NCBI GenBank assembly: GCA_963712115.1
Contig: CAVQGX010000039.1
Coordinates: 88 to 64,087, forward strand
From: an uncultured delta proteobacterium
GTDB taxonomy: Bacteria; Desulfobacterota; Syntrophobacteria; BM002
DNA length: 64,000 bases
Direction: 5' to 3'
The notes beneath the pieces were generated by a model. The model saw only the letters and a program-made list of their open reading frames with translations. It had not been told where the DNA came from and did not search any database. Made by a program: the position numbers and the translations under genes. Positions 27,837 through 45,082 of the stretch are shown one piece after another; positions within the stretch are counted from its first letter, which is position 1; each line of letters opens with the position of its first letter.

Positions 27837-29273
27837 CTAAGTAAGAACAGATGGGAAAATCTGCTTGAATAATTTATTGTATACTCTTCGACAAAAATGT
27901 AAGGAACGAATAACGAGATATAAAATACTAGTAAACGGGGCCGGTAGAGATAACATAAATAAACCAAAAAGACTGATTACGAAATTTTTGTAATTGGTAA
28001 GCACATATTGCGCTAGTAGAAGTTCACGATGCCTATTTCCTGAGAAAGTAAGTGCAGATTTTGTGTAATACTCGGTTGGCATGGGTGTGTGGGCATCAAA
28101 GAGTCCTTCCCCAACAACTTTTTCATAAAGTTTTGTCTTCCTAAGAGGATAAAAAATAGTGGTTTGCATTATCTCTGGTTGTACTTCATTGACAAGCTTA
28201 TAGGTTTTCTTGATGGAATCTCTGCCTTCTCCGGGAAACCCTATCATAGTGAATGCATGAGTGATAAGACCATGTTTTTTTGCTGTTCTGAAGGCAGAGA
28301 TGATTGTCTCTTGCGAGTGTTTTCTATTTAGTAGATTCCTTCTAATATTCTCATCTCCGGATTCAATACCGATTGAAACCATTTGCGCACCGGCCTCTCT
28401 GATAATGCGAACCTTTTCATCGGTCATATTTTCCGGCCGCTCCATAAAGACAAATGGGGTTCCTATTTCCGATCTATAAAGATCGCGGAATCTTCTCAAG
28501 CGGTCAATGTTTGTTAACATTACTTCGTCAATCCAGTACACACAGTCAAGACCATACTCATCGCGAAACATGCTTACCTCTTGGAGAATGCGCTCCGGCG
28601 ATTTTTCTCGACGCCACTTTCCCTTGCCTCTGTATAATGAGCGAACGTAGTCATTCGTACAATAGGCGCAAGCATATGGACATCCTCTACTGGCCTCAAA
28701 TGCACCGGCAATATTAGCTCCTTTGAAATGGCGTTTTATGAATGAACTACTGTAATGAATATCATCAAAAATCCGCCAATGAGGAAAAGGTAGTTCATCA
28801 AGTGCTGAGATGACATGGGTCACTTCATTCTTAAAAATCTTATCATCTTGTTTAACCCAACAACCCGCGATGCCATTAGTATCCTCACGGTGGTCTATTT
28901 TTTTCAGTATTTGTGCAAAAGTTTCTTCTCCTTCTCCAATTACCAGAATGTCTGCAATCTTTATAACCTGTTCTGGGGCAACAGTTGCATGCGGTCCACC
29001 AAAAACCTTGGGTATGCCTTCAAGATTAACAGATTCAAATAGTTGTTCTAAAAAAGACCATTCGTTGCTTCGGCACGATACAGCCAGTAAATCAGGAGCA
29101 AAACTCTCAAGTTTTGAATGAAAAGCGGGGATTTCTTCGCCTTCGGGAATAGTTGTCAAATCGTATAAACTACACTCATGTCCTGACTGACGCGCCACGC
29201 CGGCAAGCATACATATCCCTAATTGTGGGCTTGTCGCTCGAGTAATATTGGGATAGATGAACAATATTCTCAT
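27837..29273 (-). CDS. B12-binding-domain radical SAM protein
   Basis: The likely start is MRILFIYPNITRATSPQLGICMLAG (a B12-binding-like N-domain) at 29273. The radical SAM cluster motif is SRGCPYACAYC. The C-terminal tail is hydrophobic. Confidence 0.8.
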   Translation of the reverse strand: MRILFIYPNITRATSPQLGICMLAGVARQSGHECSLYDLTTIPEGEEIPAFHSKLESFAPDLLAVSCRSNEWSFLEQLFESVNLEGIPKVFGGPHATVAPEQVIKIADILVIGEGEETFAQILKKIDHREDTNGIAGCWVKQDDKIFKNEVTHVISALDELPFPHWRIFDDIHYSSSFIKRHFKGANIAGAFEASRGCPYACAYCTNDYVRSLYRGKGKWRREKSPERILQEVSMFRDEYGLDCVYWIDEVMLTNIDRLRRFRDLYRSEIGTPFVFMERPENMTDEKVRIIREAGAQMVSIGIESGDENIRRNLLNRKHSQETIISAFRTAKKHGLITHAFTMIGFPGEGRDSIKKTYKLVNEVQPEIMQTTIFYPLRKTKLYEKVVGEGLFDAHTPMPTEYYTKSALTFSGNRHRELLLAQYVLTNYKNFVISLFGLFMLSLPAPFTSILYLVIRSLHFCRRVYNKLFKQIFPSVLT

Positions 29274-29292
29274 AGATGTTCCCGAACCTCTC

Positions 29293-30588
29293 TTAAGGTG
29301 CGACAACCTCCACTTGAGATCTTTCCTTAGTCCCACGGCTGACAGTCAGATAGAAACCGATAGCCGTAAAGAAAATCGCTGTGTACGCTATGCTGGAAGC
29401 TAATGCAGCGCCTAAAACCGCATAACGAGGAATGAGAACTAAGTCGAGCACGATTGTCAGCACCAGGGCAAGACCGGCGTTAATGGAGTTGTATTTAGGG
29501 TAACCCCTTCCGGCTATTTCATTGGCCAGAACTTTTGCCCCGCCCAAAAAGATCACACCAGGAAGAAGTACCAGCAGAGGGACATAAGCGCCAGAAAATG
29601 CCGACGAGAAGACGAAATTGATCACAGGCTGACCTACGAAGGCTAGAATTAATGCTCCAAGCGCCGTCAACCCGAGGGTTATGCGAAAGACGCGAGGCGT
29701 GAATATGTTCATCTCTTCAGACTTGGTAGCTGCTGCCTTAGGAAAGATAACAAATCCCACAGCATCCGGAAGGTACCAAAGAAGCTCTGCGAGCCTTACA
29801 GAGACAGTATAGATTCCTACATTAGCAGGACCCAAAAAGTAGTTCAAAATAAACATGTCCAGACGGTAGTTGAAAAATTGAAGCACATTTCCTATCTGAC
29901 CTTGCAATCCAAAAGATAGTGTGGAGCGCAATACGGGGTATGACCAACTGGGAGTCAAGACAATACCTTCGCGATGGAGTAATATCCCCAAGATAATAAG
30001 ACTCAGGGCTCCAGAAGCGATCGGAGCTAAAACAGCGCCCAGTATCTCCATTTTACAAGCTATGACAAAAAGTAGGGTCAGCGCGAGCGTTAGAACGCCC
30101 TGTGAAAGGTTAATCAGATTAACTGTGACGATCCGCTGTAGCCCCTGTAAGATGGAGCTGAGAAAGCCACTGAGCAGGCCTGTTGGGAAGCCTAGCATGG
30201 CCACTAGAACAATCCACACGGGGACTCCTGGTACCAGAGCTTGCAGCAATCCAAAAGTGGCAAGGCCGATTACCACTGCGAACCCAAGAATTGTCACCAG
30301 CAGCGCGATTCCCACGGAGTTTGCTGTCAGGGCGGCCACGTCCAAACGACGGGAGCCGGCAAAATAGACATTGGCAAGCCCAATACCACCACTTAGGAAT
30401 ATGCCTAACATTCCTGGTATTAACAGGGCTAAGGCCAGTGTCCCCTTTCCCTCCGGCCCTAACCATTGAGCAACGATAGCTGCTGTGGCAACTGAAAGCA
30501 CAATTTTGACAACTTGAGTCAAAAAGGTGACTATCACGTGTTTTTGGAAATTAGATGAATCAACCGGTCTGTTAAAAATCTTTGTCAT
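29293..30588 (-). CDS. wzx: Wzx-type oligosaccharide flippase (MOP superfamily)
   Basis: 431-aa polytopic protein with the usual Polysacc_synt-like pattern and its typical position in an EPS locus. Confidence 0.75.
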   Translation of the reverse strand: MTKIFNRPVDSSNFQKHVIVTFLTQVVKIVLSVATAAIVAQWLGPEGKGTLALALLIPGMLGIFLSGGIGLANVYFAGSRRLDVAALTANSVGIALLVTILGFAVVIGLATFGLLQALVPGVPVWIVLVAMLGFPTGLLSGFLSSILQGLQRIVTVNLINLSQGVLTLALTLLFVIACKMEILGAVLAPIASGALSLIILGILLHREGIVLTPSWSYPVLRSTLSFGLQGQIGNVLQFFNYRLDMFILNYFLGPANVGIYTVSVRLAELLWYLPDAVGFVIFPKAAATKSEEMNIFTPRVFRITLGLTALGALILAFVGQPVINFVFSSAFSGAYVPLLVLLPGVIFLGGAKVLANEIAGRGYPKYNSINAGLALVLTIVLDLVLIPRYAVLGAALASSIAYTAIFFTAIGFYLTVSRGTKERSQVEVVAP

Positions 30589-34289: not shown

Positions 34290-35684
34290 TTACGCTTCAG
34301 CAACGACTCTGCTTTCTTCATCCATTGCGTCTAGAGAGATGAGGATCCCGGTAAGAAACCAGAACGGTTCCATGATGCGAACGATGATGAATGTATTGGC
34401 ACCGGCGGCGTGTACAAGCAACCCTACTAGTCCAGCAATGAGGCCCACAGATAGGCCTCGAAGGAGGTCGCTCTGTTGGTTTCTCCAGACTCTGAGCCCT
34501 ACGAGGAAAAGGACATAGATTAACCAACCAAAAGAAAGCATGCCGATAATCCCTGTTTCCACCAAGATTCTGGGATACTGGGCATCCATAAACTTGTGGC
34601 CGGTTACCCCATAGCCGAGAATGGGTCTATTGCGCCATTCCGAAAGGCCCTCTTTCCAACTTATAATACGAGCCGACAATGAGGTATCAAGACGAAGTTT
34701 CCCTATTTGGATCTGATCCTCACGTGATGGCTGTGTGAAGGTGTAAGCAATTCTGTTCTTAGCCACGTGAGGAAGAATGAATGGACTCAGCACAAGGATT
34801 ACGATTAGCCCGGCTACAAGGTAGAATCTTCGACGGCTAAAAAGAGATATAGCCAGATAAGCTGGGATCACCGCCAAGTAAGAGGCCCGAGACTGGGTGT
34901 AGATGAGACTTATAAGGAGGACAAGTAGAAGCACAGTCAACCCCAGTCGTACTCGCATATCCTTCAGGTGGACTATCAATGCGAATGTCACTGCCCCCAT
35001 GAATACCAAATAACCACCAAATGTATTGGGTTCTCCTACCTCTCCTTCGAAAGGGGCGCTGACTCTAATGCCGCTGGGTATTTGTGTTAATCCGTATATG
35101 GAAACAATGAAACAGGTAAGAAATAGACAGAACAGTAAACGCTTTGCCTGGTCAGGAGTGTTTACGTAATTAACGACCATGAAAAAGACAATCATGTACT
35201 CAAAGTATTTCAAAACGAAGAAAAAACCGGCACTCCCTTCAACATTACCGGTCATTTTGCCCCAGAGGGTGGCCACAAAGCAGACAACAATGTAAGCAAC
35301 GATGGGTTGGTTCAGAGGCGTCTTGCGAAAGAGACCTGTAGTCTTATCCACAGCAGTTCTGGCAAACCAACTGAGGCCAATAAACACCAAAAGAAAATCC
35401 TCTAGTCTGAGAGTCATTCCGCGACCAAGAGTAGCTTTTCCGCTAACGTCTCCGGCGATTATTTCCGGGGAAAGGAGCATAGAGAAGATGACTACATAGA
35501 GACCAGCCTCGGGCCAGATAAAGGTGCAAAAGAAAACCAAAAGCAGGATAATGAGAAGGAAACCATGGATGGCACTAATCATCGTGAGGAGGTAGCCTAC
35601 TAGAAGAGCGCCAATCAAGATTAAAATCAGGGTTGCAGGGGGAGCGCCGATTTTAAGAGTAGTCTTGGAGGACAATCTTGGCAT
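34290..35684 (-). CDS. O-antigen ligase / Wzy-like polymerase family membrane protein
   Basis: 464-aa polytopic protein with a Wzy_C-like segment LISLIYTQSRASYLAVIPAYL and a large loop. Confidence 0.7.
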   Translation of the reverse strand: MPRLSSKTTLKIGAPPATLILILIGALLVGYLLTMISAIHGFLLIILLLVFFCTFIWPEAGLYVVIFSMLLSPEIIAGDVSGKATLGRGMTLRLEDFLLVFIGLSWFARTAVDKTTGLFRKTPLNQPIVAYIVVCFVATLWGKMTGNVEGSAGFFFVLKYFEYMIVFFMVVNYVNTPDQAKRLLFCLFLTCFIVSIYGLTQIPSGIRVSAPFEGEVGEPNTFGGYLVFMGAVTFALIVHLKDMRVRLGLTVLLLVLLISLIYTQSRASYLAVIPAYLAISLFSRRRFYLVAGLIVILVLSPFILPHVAKNRIAYTFTQPSREDQIQIGKLRLDTSLSARIISWKEGLSEWRNRPILGYGVTGHKFMDAQYPRILVETGIIGMLSFGWLIYVLFLVGLRVWRNQQSDLLRGLSVGLIAGLVGLLVHAAGANTFIIVRIMEPFWFLTGILISLDAMDEESRVVAEA

Positions 35685-35693
35685 ATCAAGTAT

Positions 35694-38600
35694 CTATCCT
35701 TGACCGGAAAGGAGTTGCCAGTTTTCCTTAACGATGGTCCAGCGGTTGTCATCGTATCGAAGATGAAGAGTTTCTGTGCCCAAGTCTCTATGGTTTGCTG
35801 TCTGATAACTTTGGGTGAAAGTGACCACTGCATTGGAGCCGTTAGCTTGAACTTGCATATCACTGATCTGAACATTCCGTTTTGCAGAACGTCCAAAGAT
35901 TTCCTGCTTGTAACGCTTCCAGGCGTGATAATGCATCTCATCTGTTTCGAAGTGCTGATGGTAGCACGCGATATAGCCTATAAAGTCTCCTTTTTCCCAG
36001 GAGCTACGCCAATTTTCAACGAAATGCTGTATCTCGACCTCAACCGGTTCGGTCATGGCGGGAAGGGACTCGTAGGATTCCTCTAAAATGGCCCAATTAC
36101 CCTCGTAATTAGAGAGCTGAAACGTTTTCAAGCCGAGCCCCTTGTAGTTCTTGGTCTGATAGCGCTGTCTAAAGGTGACCAACGCGCGCGAACCGTTAAG
36201 TTCAACCCTAATGTCGCTGATTTTTACATCCCTCTCCGGAGTACGGTCAAACAAGTCCTGTTTGTAGTCTTTCCAGGCCTGGATATTCATGCCACGTGCT
36301 TTGAAGTCCGGGTGGTAACAGCCAATGTAAGCCTGCAAGTCACCCTCTTCCCAGGAACGGCGCCATTTCTCAACGAAAGGTTCTATGGATGATTCTGGAG
36401 ATAAGGCTTGCGCTTCAGCCGGCTTCTTCTCGGCGACAGTCCGATCCTCTGCAACTGGAGTACGGGCAACTACCACCGCCTCTCCGGTCGGTTGTCCTTC
36501 AGTGGACTGATCTGGTGGCTTGATCGTCTCTTTGCCGCGCGTTTGGTATGCAACCGGTTGGTCAGATTTGATTTCTTTTTGTTCAAGGATTTGCCCTTTT
36601 GGATGAGTCTCTATCGATCCAGTTCTTTGGGATTGAGCTGCAGGAGATACATCAGAGCCAACCGATTCTGTGAGCTTCTTTGTAGCTGGGGATGCAGGAA
36701 GAATAGGCTTTTTCTGTGCTACGTTCTGATCCCTGAACTTTTTCTGATCTGGACGGCTATGAATTGAAGACGTGATTTTTGGATAATTGTGCCAAACAAC
36801 ACCGGCAAGAGCGAGAATGCCGACAAATAGAAGCAGGCTAATTGCAGTTCGTTTCCCCTTGGCTTCAACCGCAAGCCTGATTTTGCCAATGATATTTTGA
36901 AAAGTACGAAGAGGCTGGCGAACTAATTCATGCCAACGAGAATGAGGGCCTGATTTTTCGCCGCGATCCTCATCACTATAGTAGTAGTCTGTCCGGTAAC
37001 GATAGAAATCAGGGGCCACATCGGGTTTAACATTGTTGAGAATTACACCAAGTACATTGGTGTTTACATTTTCAAGCTGTATCTTGGCTCTCTTTAGAAT
37101 TCCTCGCCCTATTCGGCCCACTTCGTAAACCAGGATGACGCCATCCACCTCAGGAGCCACCTCGAAGGCATCAGCCACGGGCAGAACCGGCGGTGTATCT
37201 ACAATTATGATTTCGTAGTGTTCCCTTACCTCATGGAGAAACTCCTTGAACCTGGGTGATCTAAGGATTTCAGCAGGGTTGAGCAGACTTTGCCCCGCAT
37301 TGATGATATGCAAATTATCCAGCCCCGGTGTTTTCAGGATGTCATCAATGCCAAACTCGCCCAGCATTAAATCAATGATGTTGTTAGTTACGTTTTGCCA
37401 GCCGTTATCAGTCTGCACGGCGTTGAAAGTCAAAGTTGTGTCGAGTACAATAGTGTTCTCCGGCCTTGTTTCCAGTTCACCTGTTCCCACGATGAAGTCT
37501 GTAAGCCCTGGTTGTCTCTCCAGGCCGAAAATATGGTGGACTGTTGGTCTGCGCAAATCAGCGTCTATCAAGAGGACTTTTTCTCCAGCCTGGGCCAGAC
37601 TCAGGCTCAGGTTGACCACATTGTAAGTTTTCCCTTCCTGCAGGGAAGAACTGGTAATCAGGTAAACTTTCGCCTTCTTATCCGTACGGATAAATTGGAG
37701 ATTCGTCCTCAATGAGCGGTAAGCTTCTGACACGGGAGAACGCGGGGCAAAGTGGGTTACCAGCGGCTCACCTCTTGGTTTAACCCCGGTTTCATCTTTC
37801 TCAGTAAAGGCAAATTCCTGAACAGATGGGATAATGCCGAGTACAGGTATACCCAGAATCTCCTCCACATCTTCGATGGTGCCCAAGGAGGTGTCCATGG
37901 TCTCTACAATCAAAGCAAGCACCAGGCCGACAACGAGTCCAATTATTCCGCCAGTGACGGTGTTGATCAGAGTGTTAGGCATATTTATAGGATTACTTGG
38001 CTCCAGAGCAGGTTTGATGATTTTAACCTCTTCTATTAGGCCCGATTCCTGGATCATCACTTCTTGATACTTGGATTTGAGCTGGGCAAGAAGATCCCCG
38101 TTTAGCTCCACCTCGCGGCGCAGCCTGGCGAGGGTAAGAACACTGTCCGGAATTGCCATTGCCTGACTCCGTGCTGTTTCGAGCCGTCTTTCCCAAGTCC
38201 TGCAAGCGACCGTCCATTGTGGTCAGCATGGACCTCAGTTCTTTTTCCATTTCTGAAAGCAACATTCGCCAGCTCCGCATCCACCGCGTCTACTTCGGGG
38301 TGCTCCTTGGTGTAGTCATTGAGCAGGACTTCGCGCCGCAAGCTGAGGTCTCTGAATTTGGCTGTGAGCTTGGCTAGCTGGGGAGGAGGGCTTCTCGACA
38401 AAGAATGCTTCTTGGCTGACAATCTGTTTCCCCTCACGGAATTGTTTGAAGCAGTCCAAGCTGTCTTTTGACTTCAGCCTCTTCTTTGCTGTAGATCGGC
38501 CACTTCATTCTCGAGGCTGATAAGACGATTAATGGCAGCTGTGGTCTGAGCGTCAATGGCTACCAGTTTGGTGTCTTTTTCGTAATTGCGAAGATTTTGT

Positions 38601-39180
38601 TCAGCTTCCTGCAGGCGTCTTTCAACAACTTCCAACTGCCTCTCAATGAACTCCCTGGTTTCTCTGACCTTCTTGTTCCGTCTCATCAACGTTATTCTGG
38701 CGGTAGACTTCGGCAACTGTGTTGGCGAGCAGCGCAGCCTCAGTGGCCTTTGAAGAGTTAGCGGTGATGTTTATGATGTTGGTGTTACCCTCCTGCTCGG
38801 TTTCGATCTGCGATTTGAGTCCATTTACTACTTCGAGATATTTATGGATACTGCGGACCTGGGCTGAGGAGATATTTTCAGGGATCAGCCCCATCTGTCG
38901 TGCTGATTGTTCGATGACTGGAAAACTGGTAATAATCACCGCCTGAGTTGCCACGTTGTCCCAAGAAGTCCAGGAGACGGTGCCGAGGAGTAAGGTGGTG
39001 AGATCAGTGGCTTTTTCTACTTTGACGGCGGAGGTCGCCTCGTAGATGGGTTCAGGAGTGCGAATCACCGCAAAGAGATAGCTGAAGACGGTGAACAATT
39101 ATGGTCGACAGGATGACAACAGTTCTGCGTTTGCGGATGATCCGCCAGTAATCGCGTAGATTTATGTCATATTTTGCCAT
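35694..39180 (-). pseudogene. Wzc-type chain-length-determinant/BY-kinase paralogue with a frameshifted N-terminal domain. An 821-aa ORF remains open.
   Basis: The start region 39121-39180 is identical to that of the intact paralogue (45023-45082). Fragments 38643..39098, 38474..38716 and 38102..38437 match consecutive parts of the intact N-terminus in three different frames. By manual alignment I see single-base indels near 39096, 38683, 38260 and 38187, and a net +2 in 38420-38480. ORF 35694..38159 keeps the kinase domain (Walker A SLQEGKT, LLIDADLRRP, IIVDTPPV), the Tyr cluster YRYRTDYYY, a further TM helix and two NTF2/SnoaL-like repeats. Confidence 0.75.
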
Positions 39181-39253
39181 GAATAAGTTTGCTGGTTATC
39201 CAATCCGGTAGTAAGTGAGTTCACTATCCAGCTAACCGGGTCTCCTTTTGTGC

Positions 39254-41476
39254 CTATTTAAAAGGCGCCTCACCCTTGTAGCCGTCCCAAACTTTTGCCG
39301 GCCAAAGAATGAAATCAAGAATGGGCTGTATTTCCCGCAGGAAGTCGCTTATCCTGCCAATAGTGTTCTTGGGTACGTAAAGGACATCTCCGTTGTGCAA
39401 GGTAATATTCTGACTCATATCACCTCGTTTCAGGAGTCTGTTCAGGTCACAGGCTATTACCTCGGGTCTGGTCATATCGCCCCGCAATATCTTGGCATCA
39501 CCCAGTACGGCTCTCTGCTCGAAACCACCCGACAGAGCAATTGCTTCCATTACGGTGATCTCGCCTCGGGTAGGAAAGACGCCGGGGTTCCTGACCTCTC
39601 CGAACACGAAGACCCTATTTCTGGGATCTTCAGCAACGGGAGGAACCAGCACAGTGTCACCAGCGTCCAGTACGATGTTTTGGCTAACATCTCCCTGGGT
39701 AATAACCTTATTAATATTCACGGTGACAGCCTGCCCTGTCTCCCGCCTTATATTTACCTGGCGCAGGTTGGCCTGCTCAGTAGGACCACCAGCCCGGGCT
39801 AAAGCCTGGAGAACAGTGGTTTTTCCAGTGAGGGCATAGCTCCCGGGCCCCGAACGAGAACCTCTCGGAGTATCAGGTCCATAAATAACTCCACTTGTAG
39901 TAGTGATTGCGCCCAGAAAGGAGACGAATTTGCTGTTGAATTCTTTCACCCGTACCGTTACTCGGGGTCGTCTGATATAATTGCTCAGTTCTGTGGTGAG
40001 CAGGTCATCCACTTGTTGGGCTGTAAGGCCTGATACCTTGATGTCCTCGAGGAAAGTAAAAGTGATCATGCCGTCGGGGCGGACCGGCACGAGGTATTTC
40101 GTTTCCTCCACTCCTTTCCACAGGCTGATCTCCAGCAAATCCTCCGGACCGATCTTGTATTGAGGCTGTCCGGCAATGGTCACAAAGACCTCATTTTCCT
40201 CGGGATTAATGGGGAAGACTTCCTTTCTATCGTTAGTGTATGATGCTCCAAAACCACTGAAGGATACGGATGCAAAAGACCTTGTTTGCGCCTGCTTGGC
40301 CCATATGCTCACCCCTTGGCCGTCGCTGGCGGCCACCAGGTCTTGCTGGCCGTCTGAATCCAGATCGCTCAGTACCATGTCGTAATAAGTGCCGGAGGAC
40401 CCGTAAAAGTCAGACAGGGGAGAAAGGCTTCCATTGTTCCATTGCCAGACCCAAATTCCCTGAGAATCCATAGAGGAAGCAAAGAGTTCCTGGCCGCCGC
40501 CATCTTCAACTCCCCCCGAAATTACTTTCCAAAAACTACCCTTATTCACGGGGGAGCTAAGTCGGGCGAAGCCGCCCCGGCCGTCCCCCAAAAAGACCCG
40601 GATACCGCTCTGATATGTCCCGGCAAACAGGTCAATGTGCCCGTCTCGATTGAGGTCTCCAATCGTGAGTGCATAAAAATTGCCCAGTTCAAGTGGTTCC
40701 AGTTCGGACCAGCCCCCCTCGCTGTCCCCCAACCAAACCCGGATTCCACCATTCGGTCTGATAGACGAGCCGCCAATGTCCAGATGGCCATCCTCGTTGA
40801 AGTCCGCCACCTCAACATCTATATACTCATCGCGAGCAGTGGGACCAACTTCGGCATGCCAGCCACCCTGACCGTCTCCGAACCACACCCTGATGCCACC
40901 ATTTCCATCAAGGCCCACTGCCGCAGTAATCAAATCAGGGTTGCCGTCTCCATTGATATCTTCGGTGCGCATACCGTTGAATTTACCGGTATCAGCTGGT
41001 GACTTGCCCTTTTCCCAGCCTTCTTGGCCACTGTTCATCCAGACCTGAATTCCAGGGTTGTCTCCCTTGATGCTGAAGGCGAGATCGGGACGTCCATCTG
41101 TGTCAAAATCAGCCAGTGCAATGGAGCGGACGTCTCCCTTTACCGCGAGGAAAGTGGGAAAGGACCAGGCCCCTCGGCCATTTCCGTACCAGATAGCTAC
41201 TGTACCCGGCACAGAAGAACCACCGACAATGTCCTGGTGCTGGTCCCCATTCAAGTCCCCCACCGCAACCGTTTGATAAATGCCTGAAGTTGCCAGACTC
41301 CAGGGCTTTATCTGGTAGGACTCGGGATGTTTTGCAGTGGCCCTTCTTTGGATAGTGCAGGCTGGCTGGACAGCGAGAAGAAAGACCAGTCCAAGGAGAG
41401 CTTGGAAAGGAATGTTATTTTTTCCTGATATCAACGACATGGTTCCAATCCACCTCAATTGGTTGAGGTCTGGCAC
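39254..41476 (-). CDS. Lipoprotein fusion: seven-bladed FG-GAP/VCBS propeller plus a Wza-like polysaccharide export (Poly_export plus SLBB) domain
   Basis: The signal and lipobox are LLAVQPAC. There are seven repeats of the type D[LF][ND].DG..D...G......GI.VW.GDG.GGW. The C-terminal region YKIGPEDLLEISLWKG...VPVRPDGMITFTFLEDIKVSGLTAQQV is the OPX signature, followed by SLBB-like segments. Confidence 0.8.
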   Translation of the reverse strand: MPDLNQLRWIGTMSLISGKNNIPFQALLGLVFLLAVQPACTIQRRATAKHPESYQIKPWSLATSGIYQTVAVGDLNGDQHQDIVGGSSVPGTVAIWYGNGRGAWSFPTFLAVKGDVRSIALADFDTDGRPDLAFSIKGDNPGIQVWMNSGQEGWEKGKSPADTGKFNGMRTEDINGDGNPDLITAAVGLDGNGGIRVWFGDGQGGWHAEVGPTARDEYIDVEVADFNEDGHLDIGGSSIRPNGGIRVWLGDSEGGWSELEPLELGNFYALTIGDLNRDGHIDLFAGTYQSGIRVFLGDGRGGFARLSSPVNKGSFWKVISGGVEDGGGQELFASSMDSQGIWVWQWNNGSLSPLSDFYGSSGTYYDMVLSDLDSDGQQDLVAASDGQGVSIWAKQAQTRSFASVSFSGFGASYTNDRKEVFPINPEENEVFVTIAGQPQYKIGPEDLLEISLWKGVEETKYLVPVRPDGMITFTFLEDIKVSGLTAQQVDDLLTTELSNYIRRPRVTVRVKEFNSKFVSFLGAITTTSGVIYGPDTPRGSRSGPGSYALTGKTTVLQALARAGGPTEQANLRQVNIRRETGQAVTVNINKVITQGDVSQNIVLDAGDTVLVPPVAEDPRNRVFVFGEVRNPGVFPTRGEITVMEAIALSGGFEQRAVLGDAKILRGDMTRPEVIACDLNRLLKRGDMSQNITLHNGDVLYVPKNTIGRISDFLREIQPILDFILWPAKVWDGYKGEAPFK

Positions 41477-41737
41477 CCCGTTGATTTCCGGCGGACCCTA
41501 CTAGATTTAATAATAGATGTCAAGCCGGCCAGGGAAAATCCATGCCTCAACAGTTTATGTTGGTTAATGCTCATCCGAAAACGGCCGTTTTCAGATGAGC
41601 GCGATCAGTCCCGCCACGGCGGGACGCTCAGCCATCAGCTGATATCAATGCCCACAAGTCTTGATCCCTCTTTTTGTATATCCCCTATCTCGTTTAATTA
41701 TTTAAAGCGTAAATGGTCTACCCAGATTGAGTCTTGG

Positions 41738-44700
41738 CTAATCTGAATAGACCAGGGCAACTTCACTGCCGTTTTGCATTGCGGAGAGAACCTCTTCTGC
41801 AAAGCTCGAACCTTGCATCACATTTGTTTTTACAGAAAAGGGCTCTGTAATCCCCTTCGATCCTCTGAGCACGGTGAACGGCTTTTCTACAAGCTCTCGT
41901 TCAGGCTGCGCCAGGCTGTGATAGATCCAGCCGGTGTTTCCGTTTCTTAGTTGAAGCTTGAGCCAATCTCCATTTCTGCCCACTACCTGAAGCCGTGTTC
42001 CCCTCTGAATCAGTCGGAGCAAGGGAGCGTGAATGCTGGGCCCTGATCTGATCTTGGCTACATTGGGTAGACTAACGTAAGTTTCAGCTAAGTTCTGCCT
42101 TGGGGAGCGCGCCTCTTCTGCTGAACTCGCCTTTTTAATCATATTCGGTTGTGCTGCTATGGGTCCTGAAATCACCTTCGATTTTTTCACAGCAGTAATC
42201 GGCTTTCTTACATGCTCTCGTTCAGGTTGCGCCAGGCTGTGATAGATCCAGCCGGTGCTTCCGTTTCTAAGCTCAAGCTTGAGCCAATCTCCATTTCTGC
42301 CCACTACCTGAAGCCGATTTCCCCTCTGAATGAGGTGGAGTATTGGGGTGTGAAAGCCCGGCCCTAATCGGATCTCCGCTATTTGGGGCAGACTTTCCCA
42401 GGTCTGGGCTTCACTCAGCTGCGATGGGATAAATTGGTTTGGCTTATTCACTACCCTTGGTTTTACCGCTACCAGTTCTGCTTTTTCAGCCGATTGTTTA
42501 GCCGTGCCCGAGAGCTTTGCTTGACCTTGCTCAGGTTCAGGTCTCCTCACCGCCTCTTCCACCTTGACCTCCGGTGCAGCCTTGCTGGACTTCCTGGGCA
42601 ATTCGCTGCTCGCTTTGCTGACGCTGGCGGGCACGACTATTTTGGCTCTTTGGCTTTGGGACTTTATAGTTGGGGGGCTGGGATTTGAAGACTTAAACCA
42701 CAGGAGACCTCCTATTAGCACAAGCCCCATTAGTACCGACAAAATAAGTAGATTTAATCCTTTGCCCTCCGTTGCCGAAGTCAGTCGCTTCTTACTGAGG
42801 ATGGTGCGTATCCTTCCTATTCCCTGGCTAAAGATGTCTTTCCAGCGGGAGAGTGGTGTTGCGGCCCCCTGGTCACTTTTTTGCTCATAGTAATAATCCG
42901 TGCGGTAACGATAGAAATCCGGGGCCACATCAGGTTTGACATTGTTGAGGATTACCCCCAGGACATTGCTATTCACATTTTCCAATTGCACCTTGGCTCG
43001 ATGGAGAATCCCCCGGCCAATGCGACCTACCTCGTAAACCAGGATAACCCCATCCACTTCAGGAGCCACCTCGAAGGCGTCGGCCACGGGCAGCACCGGT
43101 GGCGTGTCTATGATGATAACGTCGTAGTTTTCCCTCACCTCATGCAAGAACTCTTTAAACCTGGGTGAACGAAGGATTTCAGCGGGGTTGAGCAGACTTC
43201 GGCCCGCATTCATAATATGCAAATTATCCATCCCCGGAGTTTTGAGGATTTGATCAAATTCGAACTTGCCGAGCATCACATCGATGATGGTGTTGGTCAC
43301 GCCTTTCCAACTGCCATCTAACGTTCGGAATTCCGGCACACTGCCCATTTCCAGTTCATATGCATCCTCTCCGGGATGTTTCAAGTCGCTGATTCCCACA
43401 ATGTAATCTGTAAGCCCTGGTTCCCTTTCAAGGCCGAAAATATTATGGGTTGAGGGTCTGCGGAGATCAGCATCGATGAGAAGCACTTTTTCTCCCGCTT
43501 GGGCCAGACTCAGGCTAAGGTTGACCACATTGTAGGTTTTCCCCTCCTGCAGGGACGAACTGGTGACAAGAAAAACTTTTGCTTCTATTTCCTTCCAGAT
43601 AAATTGCAGATTGGTTCTCAAGGACCTGTATGCTTCAGAAACTGGAGAGCGCGGGGCAAAGTGAGTTACCAGCGGCTCACCTCTTGGTTTAACCCCGGTT
43701 TCATCTTTCTCACTAAAGGCAAATTCCTGAACAGATGGGATAACGCCGAGTACGGGGATACCCAGAATCTCCTCCACATCTTCGATGGTGCCCAAGGAGG
43801 TGTCCATGGTCTCTACAATCAAAGCAAGCACCAGGCCGACAACGAGGCCAATTATCCCGCCAGTGACGGTGTTGGTCAGAGTGTTGGGCATATTTATAGG
43901 ATTACTTGGCTCCAGAGCAGGTTTGATGATCTTAACCTCTTCTATTAGGCCCGATTCCTGGATCATCACTTCTTGATACTTGGATTTGAGCTGGGCAAGA
44001 AGATCCCCGTTTAGCTCCACATCCCGGCGCAGCCTGGCGAGGGTAAGAACACTGTCTGGGATTGCCATTGCTTGACCCCGCGCTGCTTCGAGCCGCTTTC
44101 CCAAGTCCTGCAAGCGGCCGTCCATTGTGGTCAGCATGGACCTCAGTTCTTTTTCCATTTCTGAAAGAACATTCGCCAGCTCCGCATCGACAGCATCCAC
44201 CTCGGGGTGCTCCTCTGTATAGTCGTTGAGCAGGATTTCGCGCCGCAAGCCCAGGTCTCTGAATTTGGTTGTGAGCTTAGCTAGTTGGGGTGAGGGATTC
44301 TCGACGTAGAATGCTTCTTGGCTGACACTCTGCTTCCCCACACTGAATTGTTGAAGAAGTCCTAGCTGTCTCTTGACTTCAAGCCTCTTTTGCTGTAGAT
44401 CGGCCACCTCATTCTCGAGGCTGATAAGACGATTAATGGCAGCTGTGGTCTGAGCGTCAATGGCCACCAGTTTGGTGTCTTTTTCATAATTGCGAAGATT
44501 TTGTTCAGCTTCCTGCAGGCGTCTTTCAACAACTTCCAACTGCCTCTCAATGAACTCCCTGGTTTCTCTGACCTTTTTGTTCCGTTCATTAACGTTATTC
44601 TGGCGGTAGACTTCGGCAACTGTGTTGGCGAGCAGCGTAGCCTCAGTTGCATTTGAAGAGTTAGCGGTGATGTTTATGATGTTGGTGTTACCCTCCTGCT

Positions 44701-45082
44701 CGGTTTCGATCTGCGATTTGAGTCCATTTACTACTTCGAGATATTTATGGATACTGCGGACCTGGGCTGAGGAGATATTTTCAGGGATGAGCCCCATCTG
44801 TCGTGCTGATTGTTCGATGACTGGAAAACTGGTAATAATCACCGCCTGGGTTGCCACGTTGTCCCAAGAAGTCCAGGAGACGGTGCCGAGGAGTAAGGTA
44901 GTGAGATCAGTGGCTTTTTCTACTTTGACGGCGGAGGTTGCCTCGTAGATAGGTTCGGGAGTGCGAATCACCGCAAAGAGATAGCTGAAGACCGTGAAAA
45001 TTATGGTCGACAGGATGACAACAGTTCTGCGTTTGCGGATGATCCGCCAGTAATCGCGTAGATTTATGTCATATTTTGCCAT
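41738..45082 (-). CDS. wzc: Wzc-type polysaccharide co-polymerase/BY-tyrosine kinase with an extra C-terminal TM segment and two SH3-like domains
   Basis: 1114 aa. It has a Wzz-like N-terminal domain with two TM helices and coiled coils. The kinase motifs are SLQEGKT, LLIDADLRRP and IIIDTPPV, and the Tyr cluster is YRYRTDYYY. It then has a TM helix (LNLLILSVLMGLVLIGGLLWF), a Pro/Ser/Lys-rich linker, and two repeats of ...GP..H.P.L.LIQRG.RLQVVGRNGDWLKL.LRNG.TGWIYHSLAQPE (bacterial SH3-like). Confidence 0.85.
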   Translation of the reverse strand: MAKYDINLRDYWRIIRKRRTVVILSTIIFTVFSYLFAVIRTPEPIYEATSAVKVEKATDLTTLLLGTVSWTSWDNVATQAVIITSFPVIEQSARQMGLIPENISSAQVRSIHKYLEVVNGLKSQIETEQEGNTNIINITANSSNATEATLLANTVAEVYRQNNVNERNKKVRETREFIERQLEVVERRLQEAEQNLRNYEKDTKLVAIDAQTTAAINRLISLENEVADLQQKRLEVKRQLGLLQQFSVGKQSVSQEAFYVENPSPQLAKLTTKFRDLGLRREILLNDYTEEHPEVDAVDAELANVLSEMEKELRSMLTTMDGRLQDLGKRLEAARGQAMAIPDSVLTLARLRRDVELNGDLLAQLKSKYQEVMIQESGLIEEVKIIKPALEPSNPINMPNTLTNTVTGGIIGLVVGLVLALIVETMDTSLGTIEDVEEILGIPVLGVIPSVQEFAFSEKDETGVKPRGEPLVTHFAPRSPVSEAYRSLRTNLQFIWKEIEAKVFLVTSSSLQEGKTYNVVNLSLSLAQAGEKVLLIDADLRRPSTHNIFGLEREPGLTDYIVGISDLKHPGEDAYELEMGSVPEFRTLDGSWKGVTNTIIDVMLGKFEFDQILKTPGMDNLHIMNAGRSLLNPAEILRSPRFKEFLHEVRENYDVIIIDTPPVLPVADAFEVAPEVDGVILVYEVGRIGRGILHRAKVQLENVNSNVLGVILNNVKPDVAPDFYRYRTDYYYEQKSDQGAATPLSRWKDIFSQGIGRIRTILSKKRLTSATEGKGLNLLILSVLMGLVLIGGLLWFKSSNPSPPTIKSQSQRAKIVVPASVSKASSELPRKSSKAAPEVKVEEAVRRPEPEQGQAKLSGTAKQSAEKAELVAVKPRVVNKPNQFIPSQLSEAQTWESLPQIAEIRLGPGFHTPILHLIQRGNRLQVVGRNGDWLKLELRNGSTGWIYHSLAQPEREHVRKPITAVKKSKVISGPIAAQPNMIKKASSAEEARSPRQNLAETYVSLPNVAKIRSGPSIHAPLLRLIQRGTRLQVVGRNGDWLKLQLRNGNTGWIYHSLAQPERELVEKPFTVLRGSKGITEPFSVKTNVMQGSSFAEEVLSAMQNGSEVALVYSD

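Follow-up and report, generated by a model that had tools for sequence, protein, structure and literature searches.

Two Wzc-type tyrosine kinases with a predicted third transmembrane helix and paired SH3b or NTF2 domains in an uncultured delta proteobacterium

Domain organisation of the two kinases

The window analysed here is a stretch of 64,000 nucleotides from an uncultured delta proteobacterium (Desulfobacterota; Syntrophobacteria; BM002), covering positions 88 to 64,087 of contig CAVQGX010000039.1 (C39 below) in assembly GCA_963712115.1. It contains two paralogous genes for bacterial tyrosine kinases (BY-kinases) of the Wzc type, designated copy 1 and copy 2. Both proteins run on past the tyrosine (Tyr) cluster YRYRTDYYY into a hydrophobic helix, a linker rich in Pro, Ser, Lys and Gln, and two tandem domains. 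This layout had been proposed in the first-pass annotation of the sequence, and the open reading frames (ORFs), Pfam matches and hydropathy agree on it. The features of the two genes are as follows.

41738..45082, minus strand: copy 2, a polysaccharide co-polymerase (PCP-2a)/BY-kinase of 1114 residues with an SH3-type extension, in a single uninterrupted ORF
44966..45022, minus strand: copy 2, first transmembrane helix (TM1), residues 21-39; Kyte-Doolittle hydropathy 2.54, six Lys/Arg in the preceding 15 residues
43814..43870, minus strand: copy 2, second transmembrane helix (TM2), residues 405-423, at the end of the GNVR region; Kyte-Doolittle 2.55
42914..43675, minus strand: copy 2, predicted cytoplasmic kinase domain, about residues 470-723; Walker A, A' and B motifs, AAA_31/CbiA match
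42887..42913, minus strand: copy 2, Tyr cluster YRYRTDYYY, residues 724-732; DNA homology to copy 1 stops here
42752..42886, minus strand: copy 2, predicted cytoplasmic juxtamembrane segment, residues 733-777; conserved SRW motif and basic patch
42695..42751, minus strand: copy 2, predicted third transmembrane helix (TM3), residues 778-796; Kyte-Doolittle 2.61
42380..42694, minus strand: copy 2, low-complexity Pro/Ser/Lys/Gln/Ala spacer, residues 797-901, by composition; predicted local distance difference test (pLDDT) below 50
42212..42379, minus strand: copy 2, SH3b domain 1, residues 902-957; Pfam SH3_3
41891..42058, minus strand: copy 2, SH3b domain 2, residues 1009-1064; best Pfam SH3_3 stretch 1008-1055
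35694..38159, minus strand: copy 1, open 3' part of 821 residues, with the end of the periplasmic domain, TM2, kinase, Tyr cluster, TM3, spacer and two NTF2-like domains
38160..39180, minus strand: copy 1, frame-broken 5' third from ATG 39180, with TM1 and most of the periplasmic domain, by tblastn and DNA alignments
36978..37004, minus strand: copy 1, Tyr cluster YRYRTDYYY, residues 386-394 of the 821-residue ORF
36792..36848, minus strand: copy 1, predicted TM3, residues 438-456; Kyte-Doolittle 2.40, five Lys/Arg before and two after
36381..36791, minus strand: copy 1, low-complexity spacer, about residues 457-593, by composition
36078..36380, minus strand: copy 1, NTF2-like domain 1 (Cds6_C); PF24125, 72.1 bits at C39:36165-36467
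35721..36032, minus strand: copy 1, NTF2-like domain 2 (Cds6_C); PF24125, 72.9 bits

Copy 2 is the intact member of the pair. The Pfam matches are Wzz (residues 5-87), GNVR (348-422), AAA_31/CbiA (504-718) and SH3_3 twice (E 7.9e-20), and the Wzz/GNVR periplasmic domain lies between two transmembrane helices, as is taken to define BY-kinases of the PCP-2a type. The kinase motifs are Walker A SSLQEGKT (509-516), Walker A' VLLIDADLR (533-541) and Walker B VIIIDTPP (655-662). The 821-residue ORF of copy 1 has GNVR, AAA_31 and the same Walker motifs (SSLQEGKT, VLLIDADLR, V/IIIxDTPP), followed by two Cds6_C domains (E 2.1e-38). The BY-kinase model TIGR01007 gave 169 bits for copy 2 and 173 bits for copy 1 against a cut-off of 108. 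The equivalog models of Escherichia coli Wzc and Etk (NF008568, NF007350) stayed far below their cut-offs, with 184 against 1068 bits for Wzc and 196 against 1248 bits for Etk. Between Walker A' and B, the kinase domain also contains an insertion of some 40-60 residues (copy 2, about residues 540-618; about 43280-43460). The AAA_31 and TIGR01007 matches bypass it, its pLDDT in the AlphaFold2 (AF2) model is below 50, and the paralogues diverge most in this region.

The Tyr cluster is found at the usual distance from Walker B, yet it is internal, with 382 residues beyond it in copy 2 and 427 in copy 1. About 45 residues past the cluster lies the third helix, whose hydropathy (Kyte-Doolittle, 19-residue window) matches that of TM1 and TM2 (2.61 and 2.40 versus 2.54 and 2.55). 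In both copies, the 15 residues ahead of it contain four to five Lys/Arg, and two Lys/Arg follow it. A full-length AF2 model of copy 2, built with 17 close homologues, places the helix at residues 776-794, although with low confidence. In the juxtamembrane segment of copy 2, P743, S745 and W747 are nearly invariant in an alignment of relatives. Beyond the helix, 100-130 residues with a high content of Pro, Ser, Lys, Gln and Ala form a spacer that leads to the two tandem domains. Because of the hydropathy, the positive-inside charge pattern and the otherwise extracytoplasmic families of the tail domains, TM3 is very probably an N-in/C-out helix with the C-terminal segment in the periplasm. The suggestion of a third segment outside the membrane therefore stands; hydropathy, on which the membrane-spanning nature of the helix was checked, is as strong as for TM1 and TM2.

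The tail domains belong to different families in the two copies. In copy 2, SH3_3 (PF08239) matched two stretches with 71 bits (cut-off 27), which bears out the SH3-like assignment made at first sight. A search against the PDB gave a weak match to 2kq8, the SH3 domain of a cell-wall hydrolase (E 0.003), and AF2 confidence over this region was only moderate. The two units form a 107-residue tandem repeat with linkers (41891-42379), in which 45 of 56 residues are identical (80%). The NTF2 units of copy 1 are identical at 52 of 112 residues (46%), so that both tandem repeats quoted in the first-pass annotation were recovered. The higher similarity of the SH3 units indicates a recent internal duplication or homogenisation.

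In copy 1, PF24125 matched two domains with 131 bits (cut-off 27), and the NTF2 pair was modelled by AF2 as alpha+beta cones with a pLDDT of 87.6. The top Foldseek match was Bd1075 (7O21), and Pgp2 superimposed with a root-mean-square deviation of 2.6-3.2 Å over about 110 residues; the list of matches was broad. The phmmer search with NTF2 domain 2 found 7O21 (Bd1075, 8e-11), Csd6 (4XZZ, 1e-9) and Pgp2 (4e-5), and in the HMMER alignment Tyr274 and Trp303 of Bd1075 fall on the conserved Tyr of TQSYQT and the Trp of KENWQL. The likeness to a module of L,D-transpeptidases is thus confirmed at the level of the family (PF24125, phmmer, Foldseek). Its supposed N-terminal position is not, since the NTF2 module is C-terminal in Csd6, Pgp2, Bd1075 and the L,D-transpeptidase encoded by this genome. 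The latter (C42:116249-117604) has a signal peptide and combines a YkuD L,D-transpeptidase domain with two NTF2 domains of the Cds6_C family. A YkuD/NTF2 family of this kind is a plausible source of the NTF2 module in the kinase tail. The second NTF2 domain of the C42 protein is close to that of the kinase tail. The Pfam scan revealed no SPOR domain (PF05036) in either window protein.

The paralogues are nearly identical up to the Tyr cluster and differ after it. Protein identity is 97.7% over the end of the periplasmic domain and TM2 and 81.8% over the kinase domain; it drops to 29% over the stretch that begins immediately past the last Tyr and ends with TM3. In DNA, the alignment of the two genes stops at this same point, at 36978 in copy 1 and at 42887 in copy 2. 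A second contig of the same genome bin, C40, carries an SH3 copy and an NTF2 copy as well. Over its first 480 residues, copy 2 has 94.6% identity to the C40 NTF2 copy and only 66.7% to the C40 SH3 copy; its kinase domain and tail are 97% and 91% identical to those of the SH3 copy. These mosaic identities indicate that gene conversion homogenises the bodies of the genes, while the tails, with their own diverged TM3, stay distinct. The pattern implies that selection favours two different tails. The regions compared for the mosaic were 43640-45082 of the window with 37097-38536 and 31046-32482 of C40. The proposed module exchange between near-identical paralogues is supported by these values and by relatives with mixed tails. 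Among close relatives, the tail domains are arranged as NTF2-SPOR (P0058, P0059), NTF2-SPOR-NTF2 (P0044, P0050), SH3-NTF2 (P0022), SH3-SH3 (P0019) or a single SH3 (L012).

Distribution of the third helix and the tails

The family was surveyed by a HMMER scan with the kinase domain alone, from which the best 150 representatives of 50%-identity clusters were taken, 147 of them new. An extension of at least 100 residues past the Tyr cluster was found in 61 of these 147 nearest BY-kinase clusters, mostly with SPOR domains. The layout can therefore not be regarded as an exception to the canonical Wzc, as it had been presented. A hydrophobic helix within 130 residues past the Tyr cluster is present in 66 of the 147 clusters, with a median gap of 44 residues; about a dozen clusters have the helix and next to nothing further. 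Around the 66 helices, 4.3 Lys/Arg before the helix compare with 1.7 after it. The outer end of TM3 has a Trp in 41 and a WQ motif in 23 of the 66 helices; whereas WQ was found in none of the 309 transmembrane segments upstream of the kinase. This suggests that TM3 is homologous across the branch and was not invented repeatedly. Examples of Trp or WQ at the periplasmic end are seen in widely divergent members such as P0062, P0067, P0122, P0145 and P0087, and in the window at 42695-42700 and 36792-36800.

A tree of the kinase domains was reconstructed with FastTree. The TM3 trait required 14 changes on this tree, compared with 35.6 for shuffled labels (minimum 27); many deep nodes are weak and some 'canonical' tips are possibly truncated gene calls, which leaves the number of gains and losses unsettled. 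The window's proteins belong to a well-supported clade of 13, all of which have TM3. Among species-representative genomes, 79 named loci were sorted into about 29 with TM3 and a long tail, about 24 with TM3 only and about 22 of canonical form. TM3 with a long tail occurs in Syntrophobacterales, Desulfobacterales, Syntrophales, Latescibacterota, Nitrospinota and Rokubacteria/Methylomirabilota, and TM3 alone in Desulfobacterales, Planctomycetota/Brocadiaceae and others.

SPOR is the predominant tail domain. It was detected in 32 of 42 extended full-length representatives, compared with two for SH3_3. Among 26 long tails from named metagenome-assembled genomes (MAGs), 15 have SPOR, three Cds6_C and one SH3_3. 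Searches with the tails alone revealed full-length kinase-tail proteins of the SH3 type in about 16 clusters (1098-1117 residues) from other metagenomes, and of the NTF2 type in about 15 clusters (1118-1160 residues). The matches were labelled Syntrophobacterales, Syntrophobacteria or Deltaproteobacteria. Apparent stand-alone tails of 453-552 residues were considered as an unfused ancestor and rejected. All of them begin within the kinase domain, and the tail ORF of L008 overlaps the upstream kinase ORF, which indicates split gene calls and not separate genes.

The broken 5' part of copy 1 and the surrounding locus

Copy 1 had been taken for an intact protein of 821 residues; this ORF covers only the 3' two-thirds of the gene, whose start is the ATG at 39180. 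A tblastn search with copy 2 against 35501-39400 recovered all 338 missing N-terminal residues upstream of the 821-residue ORF in shifting frames, and the first 1 kb or so of copy 1 is 87-98% identical to copy 2 in DNA. When the DNA of both copies was aligned four ways with that of their two C40 homologues, seven one-base insertions were seen in copy 1 only (39096, 38682, 38479, 38447, 38386, 38260 and 38187); the remaining three sequences differ from each other by just one or two insertions or deletions (indels). When the inserted bases are ignored, the ratio of nonsynonymous to synonymous substitution rates (dN/dS) of the broken stretch is 0.14-0.20, compared with 0.15-0.22 between intact copies. 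The ratio of indels to substitutions in this stretch is very high, at about 8:58, and the other genes compared between C39 and C40 have no uncompensated indels. In species of the same genus, the NTF2-type paralogue has open frames of 1159 and 1079 residues, and its partner of 1114 and 1125 residues.

Copy 1 is therefore probably a full-length gene of about 1160 residues in which the 5' third was corrupted by an error of the assembly consensus. This is suggested because all seven changes are insertions, the indel ratio is high, dN/dS is unchanged and the other C39/C40 genes are clean. A consensus error is plausible since up to four near-identical sequences were assembled at this stretch. It is possible, though rather doubtful, that copy 1 is a genuine recent pseudogene, or yields an 821-residue product from the internal ATG at 38159, in which case only the SH3 paralogue would be fully functional here. 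Seven frame-breaking insertions inside 1 kb would fit such decay, as would the frameshifts on the sister contig C40 and the broken NTF2-type genes in other metagenome contigs (P0036, P0040, P0043, P0045 and P0049 begin within the kinase domain). However, insertions only, and in one copy only, would be odd for natural decay and are typical of consensus errors in near-identical repeats. The dN/dS like that of intact copies, the very high indel ratio, the absence of uncompensated indels from the other C39/C40 genes and the open 1159-residue frame in a congener also argue against a pseudogene.

The source MAG consists of 70 contigs that total 4.9 Mb; it is 94% complete and 6% contaminated. C40 is colinear with C39 over most of its length, in the same gene order and with 85-97% DNA identity, which points to a second strain binned together or to a very extensive duplication. 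On C39 and C40 together, the bin contains all genes of this locus in two copies. On C40, the SH3 copy has one frame break, immediately past its Tyr cluster, and the NTF2 copy has two. Frame breaks recur at C40:33250-33350, at about C40 38997 and 40342, and at L008:2100-2122. At least five JGI/ENA contigs have NTF2-type genes that are split in the kinase domain, from an assembly problem with paralogous repeats or from real instability.

The neighbouring genes include three further components of a polysaccharide export system.

39254..41476, minus strand: Wza-type outer-membrane exporter with an N-terminal five-bladed FG-GAP propeller, between the two kinases; Pfam FG-GAP_3 five times, Poly_export, SLBB twice
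34290..35684, minus strand: Wzy_C-type polymerase/ligase directly downstream of copy 1, assigned from syntenic orthologues with PF04932 in L008, L011 and L012
29293-30588: Wzx-type flippase (Polysacc_synt)

The ORF at 34290-35684 itself gave only weak NCBIfam matches below cut-off (IctB TIGR00947, PEP_O_lig_1). Many GT4/GT2 glycosyltransferases, methyltransferases and an asparagine synthase are also encoded, and from this gene content the region is assigned as a Wzx/Wzy-dependent exopolysaccharide (EPS) locus. A B12-binding radical-SAM enzyme (27837-29336) is located amid the glycosyltransferases of the locus; together with the methyltransferases and the asparagine synthase it suggests an unusually modified polymer. 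The order SH3-kinase, FG-GAP-Wza, NTF2-kinase, Wzy_C, flippase and glycosyltransferases is also found in L011 and L012, and partly in L008 and L009; in L012 the Wza gene lies ahead of both kinases. The FG-GAP-Wza fusion adjoins tailed kinases in L011, L012 and L015. It is a likely partner of these kinases and could also be their docking partner in the periplasm.

Possible roles of the tails and comparison with known systems

Denuded glycan strands are the ligand of SPOR domains, and peptidoglycan hydrolases use SH3b domains to target the wall. For the NTF2 pocket of Pgp2, binding of peptidoglycan was shown by pull-down and nuclear magnetic resonance (PMC8038945). Targeting of Bd1075 within the periplasm requires its NTF2 domain, in which Tyr274 and Trp303 are important for this function (PMC8938487). 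Peptidoglycan binding by the SH3b and NTF2 tails described here is inferred by analogy, because three unrelated folds swap at one position and the property that they share is peptidoglycan binding. Of the roles put forward in the first-pass annotation, sensing and wall or matrix binding, the attachment to the wall is best supported; sensing and matrix binding remain as rivals.

The following arrangement is proposed. Both genes would encode Wzc-type co-polymerases and tyrosine autokinases (PCP-2a; autophosphorylation is predicted) of the Wzx/Wzy-dependent EPS locus. Past the Tyr cluster, a basic cytoplasmic segment of about 45 residues would lead to TM3, which would return the chain to the periplasm. 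There, a disordered leash of 100-130 residues would bear two putative wall-binding modules, SH3b in copy 2 and the Csd6/Pgp2-type NTF2 in copy 1. The leash may tether or target the inner-membrane oligomer, and with it Wza, to the sacculus or to particular features of the peptidoglycan. With TM3 behind it, the Tyr cluster would become a membrane-tethered loop between the kinase core and TM3 and not a free tail, which could restrain or time trans-phosphorylation. On balance, and with some reserve, a tail that tethers or targets the co-polymerase to the sacculus is the favoured explanation.

Several points weigh against this explanation. About 24 of the 79 named loci have the third helix with almost no tail, a frequency which suggests that the helix may have a separate function that goes beyond wall binding. 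About seven of the 26 long tails have no Pfam domain at all, and SH3b and NTF2 folds also bind other ligands. The full-length AF2 model of copy 2 has a pLDDT of 47.5 and is uninformative on the packing of TM3. No Wzb-type phosphatase gene was found in the window; four LMWPc genes are located on contigs C10, C27 and C31, and the PHP type was not searched. In CP070843, a MAG chromosome in a single contig, the SH3 copy and Wza are present and the NTF2 copy is missing, which indicates that the kinase pair is frequent but not obligatory.

The tails might instead be sensors. Binding of peptidoglycan or muropeptides would then be relayed through TM3 to the Tyr cluster, and would tune autophosphorylation, oligomer cycling and the length or amount of the polymer. 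The short distance from the Tyr cluster to TM3 (about 44 residues as the family median), the conserved SRW motif and basic patch between them, and the frequency of TM3 without a tail, which suggests that the helix itself matters to the kinase, would all be consistent with this. However, a disordered spacer of 100-130 residues is a poor relay of conformational change; moreover, SPOR, SH3b and the Pgp2-type NTF2 are known for targeting and binding, not for signalling. A sensor function, which overlaps with the anchoring proposed above, is therefore considered unlikely.

It is likewise improbable that the ligand is something other than peptidoglycan, such as the exported polysaccharide or matrix (for retention of the product or feedback) or the FG-GAP propeller of the Wza partner. 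The FG-GAP-Wza fusion beside the kinases in L011, L012 and L015 would fit this proposal; NTF2 and SH3 folds are versatile binders, and some tails have no recognisable domain. Against it stands the interchange of three unrelated folds at one position, whose common documented property is peptidoglycan binding. The link to FG-GAP is not general, the Wza partner in phyla with SPOR-type tails not having been checked, and by sequence the NTF2 domains are closest to peptidoglycan enzymes, one of them encoded in this genome.

An artefactual fusion of two genes, one for a normal Wzc and the next one downstream for a bitopic protein that binds the wall, was rejected as extremely unlikely: the SH3 copy on C40 shifts frame 11 residues past the Tyr cluster and a Met just ahead of TM3 in both C40 copies (Ile in C39) could pass for a start, but the frame runs through without a break in over 30 independent clusters, which stem from different samples and assemblers, neither a stop nor a gap resembling a ribosome-binding site separates the Tyr cluster from TM3, and the C40 break is a single-base difference.

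Current models of Wzc and capsule export assume a free C-terminal Tyr tail and no direct link between the machine and peptidoglycan. Both assumptions would fail for a large branch of the BY-kinases, found in uncultured anaerobes and in soil and groundwater phyla. If the anchoring of the co-polymerase to the sacculus is true, these proteins would offer a direct handle on the placement of Gram-negative export machines with respect to the sacculus, and on phospho-cycling with a tethered tail. The window contributes the rarer SH3 and NTF2 versions, and also a natural 'swap experiment' of paralogues that differ essentially in the tail only. A more far-reaching proposal, which is speculative and which we regard as having a low probability, is that TM3 with an exchangeable wall-binding tail defines an ancient third class of BY-kinases (TAD-CD-TM3-anchor) that patterns polysaccharide export on the sacculus. 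The two paralogues, with a gene-converted body and different tails, would act in mixed oligomers or as two differently placed machines and would read two features of the peptidoglycan; tethering of the Tyr cluster would couple wall attachment to the phosphorylation cycle.

Only the CD and TAD-CD types were recognised in the phylogenomic survey of BY-kinases by Shi et al. in 2014 (PMC4007543). In the literature searched, which covered few subscription journals and where absence is not proof, no description of a BY-kinase with a SPOR, SH3 or other wall-binding tail was found. The question whether such extensions are common and already annotated thus has a divided answer, as they are common, and are annotated only as automatic domain matches. 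The window proteins are minority tail variants of this widespread architecture, which is present in the databases only in that form.

Four known systems can be compared with them. E. coli Wzc ends at the Tyr cluster, and Wzc and Etk serve group 1/4 capsule and colanic acid systems. The window proteins resemble Wzc/Etk in TM1, the coiled-coil Wzz/GNVR periplasmic domain, TM2, the cytoplasmic P-loop kinase with its Walker A, A' and B motifs and the Tyr cluster, and in the position of the gene beside a Wza-type exporter in a Wzx/Wzy locus. They differ by running about 380-430 residues further (TM3, spacer and two putative wall-binding domains), and by the insert between Walker A' and B and the lack of an adjacent phosphatase gene. 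The SPOR-tailed BY-kinases, which are common in MAGs of Desulfobacterota, Nitrospinota, Latescibacterota and Rokubacteria/Methylomirabilota, belong to the same kinase-domain clade. They share the Tyr cluster, the basic stretch, a TM3 that often ends in W-Q, the Pro-rich spacer and a putative wall-binding module; whereas the window tails are of the minority types with two SH3b or two NTF2 domains and form a conserved pair in one locus.

The L,D-carboxypeptidases Pgp2 (Campylobacter jejuni), Csd6 (Helicobacter pylori) and Bd1075 (Bdellovibrio bacteriovorus) have in common with the window the PF24125 NTF2 domain, in which the pocket Tyr/Trp of Bd1075 are conserved in the window, and all of them are periplasmic. 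In the window, however, the NTF2 domain is duplicated and is carried by a membrane-anchored kinase without the YkuD catalytic domain, and not by a soluble enzyme. The SPOR proteins FtsN, DedD and DamX, which are bitopic, consist of a short basic cytoplasmic stub, one transmembrane helix, a long disordered linker rich in Pro and Gln, and a C-terminal peptidoglycan-binding domain. The layout of the kinase tails is similar to this; whereas the tail of the window proteins extends the C-terminus of a kinase, with SH3b or NTF2 domains in place of SPOR.

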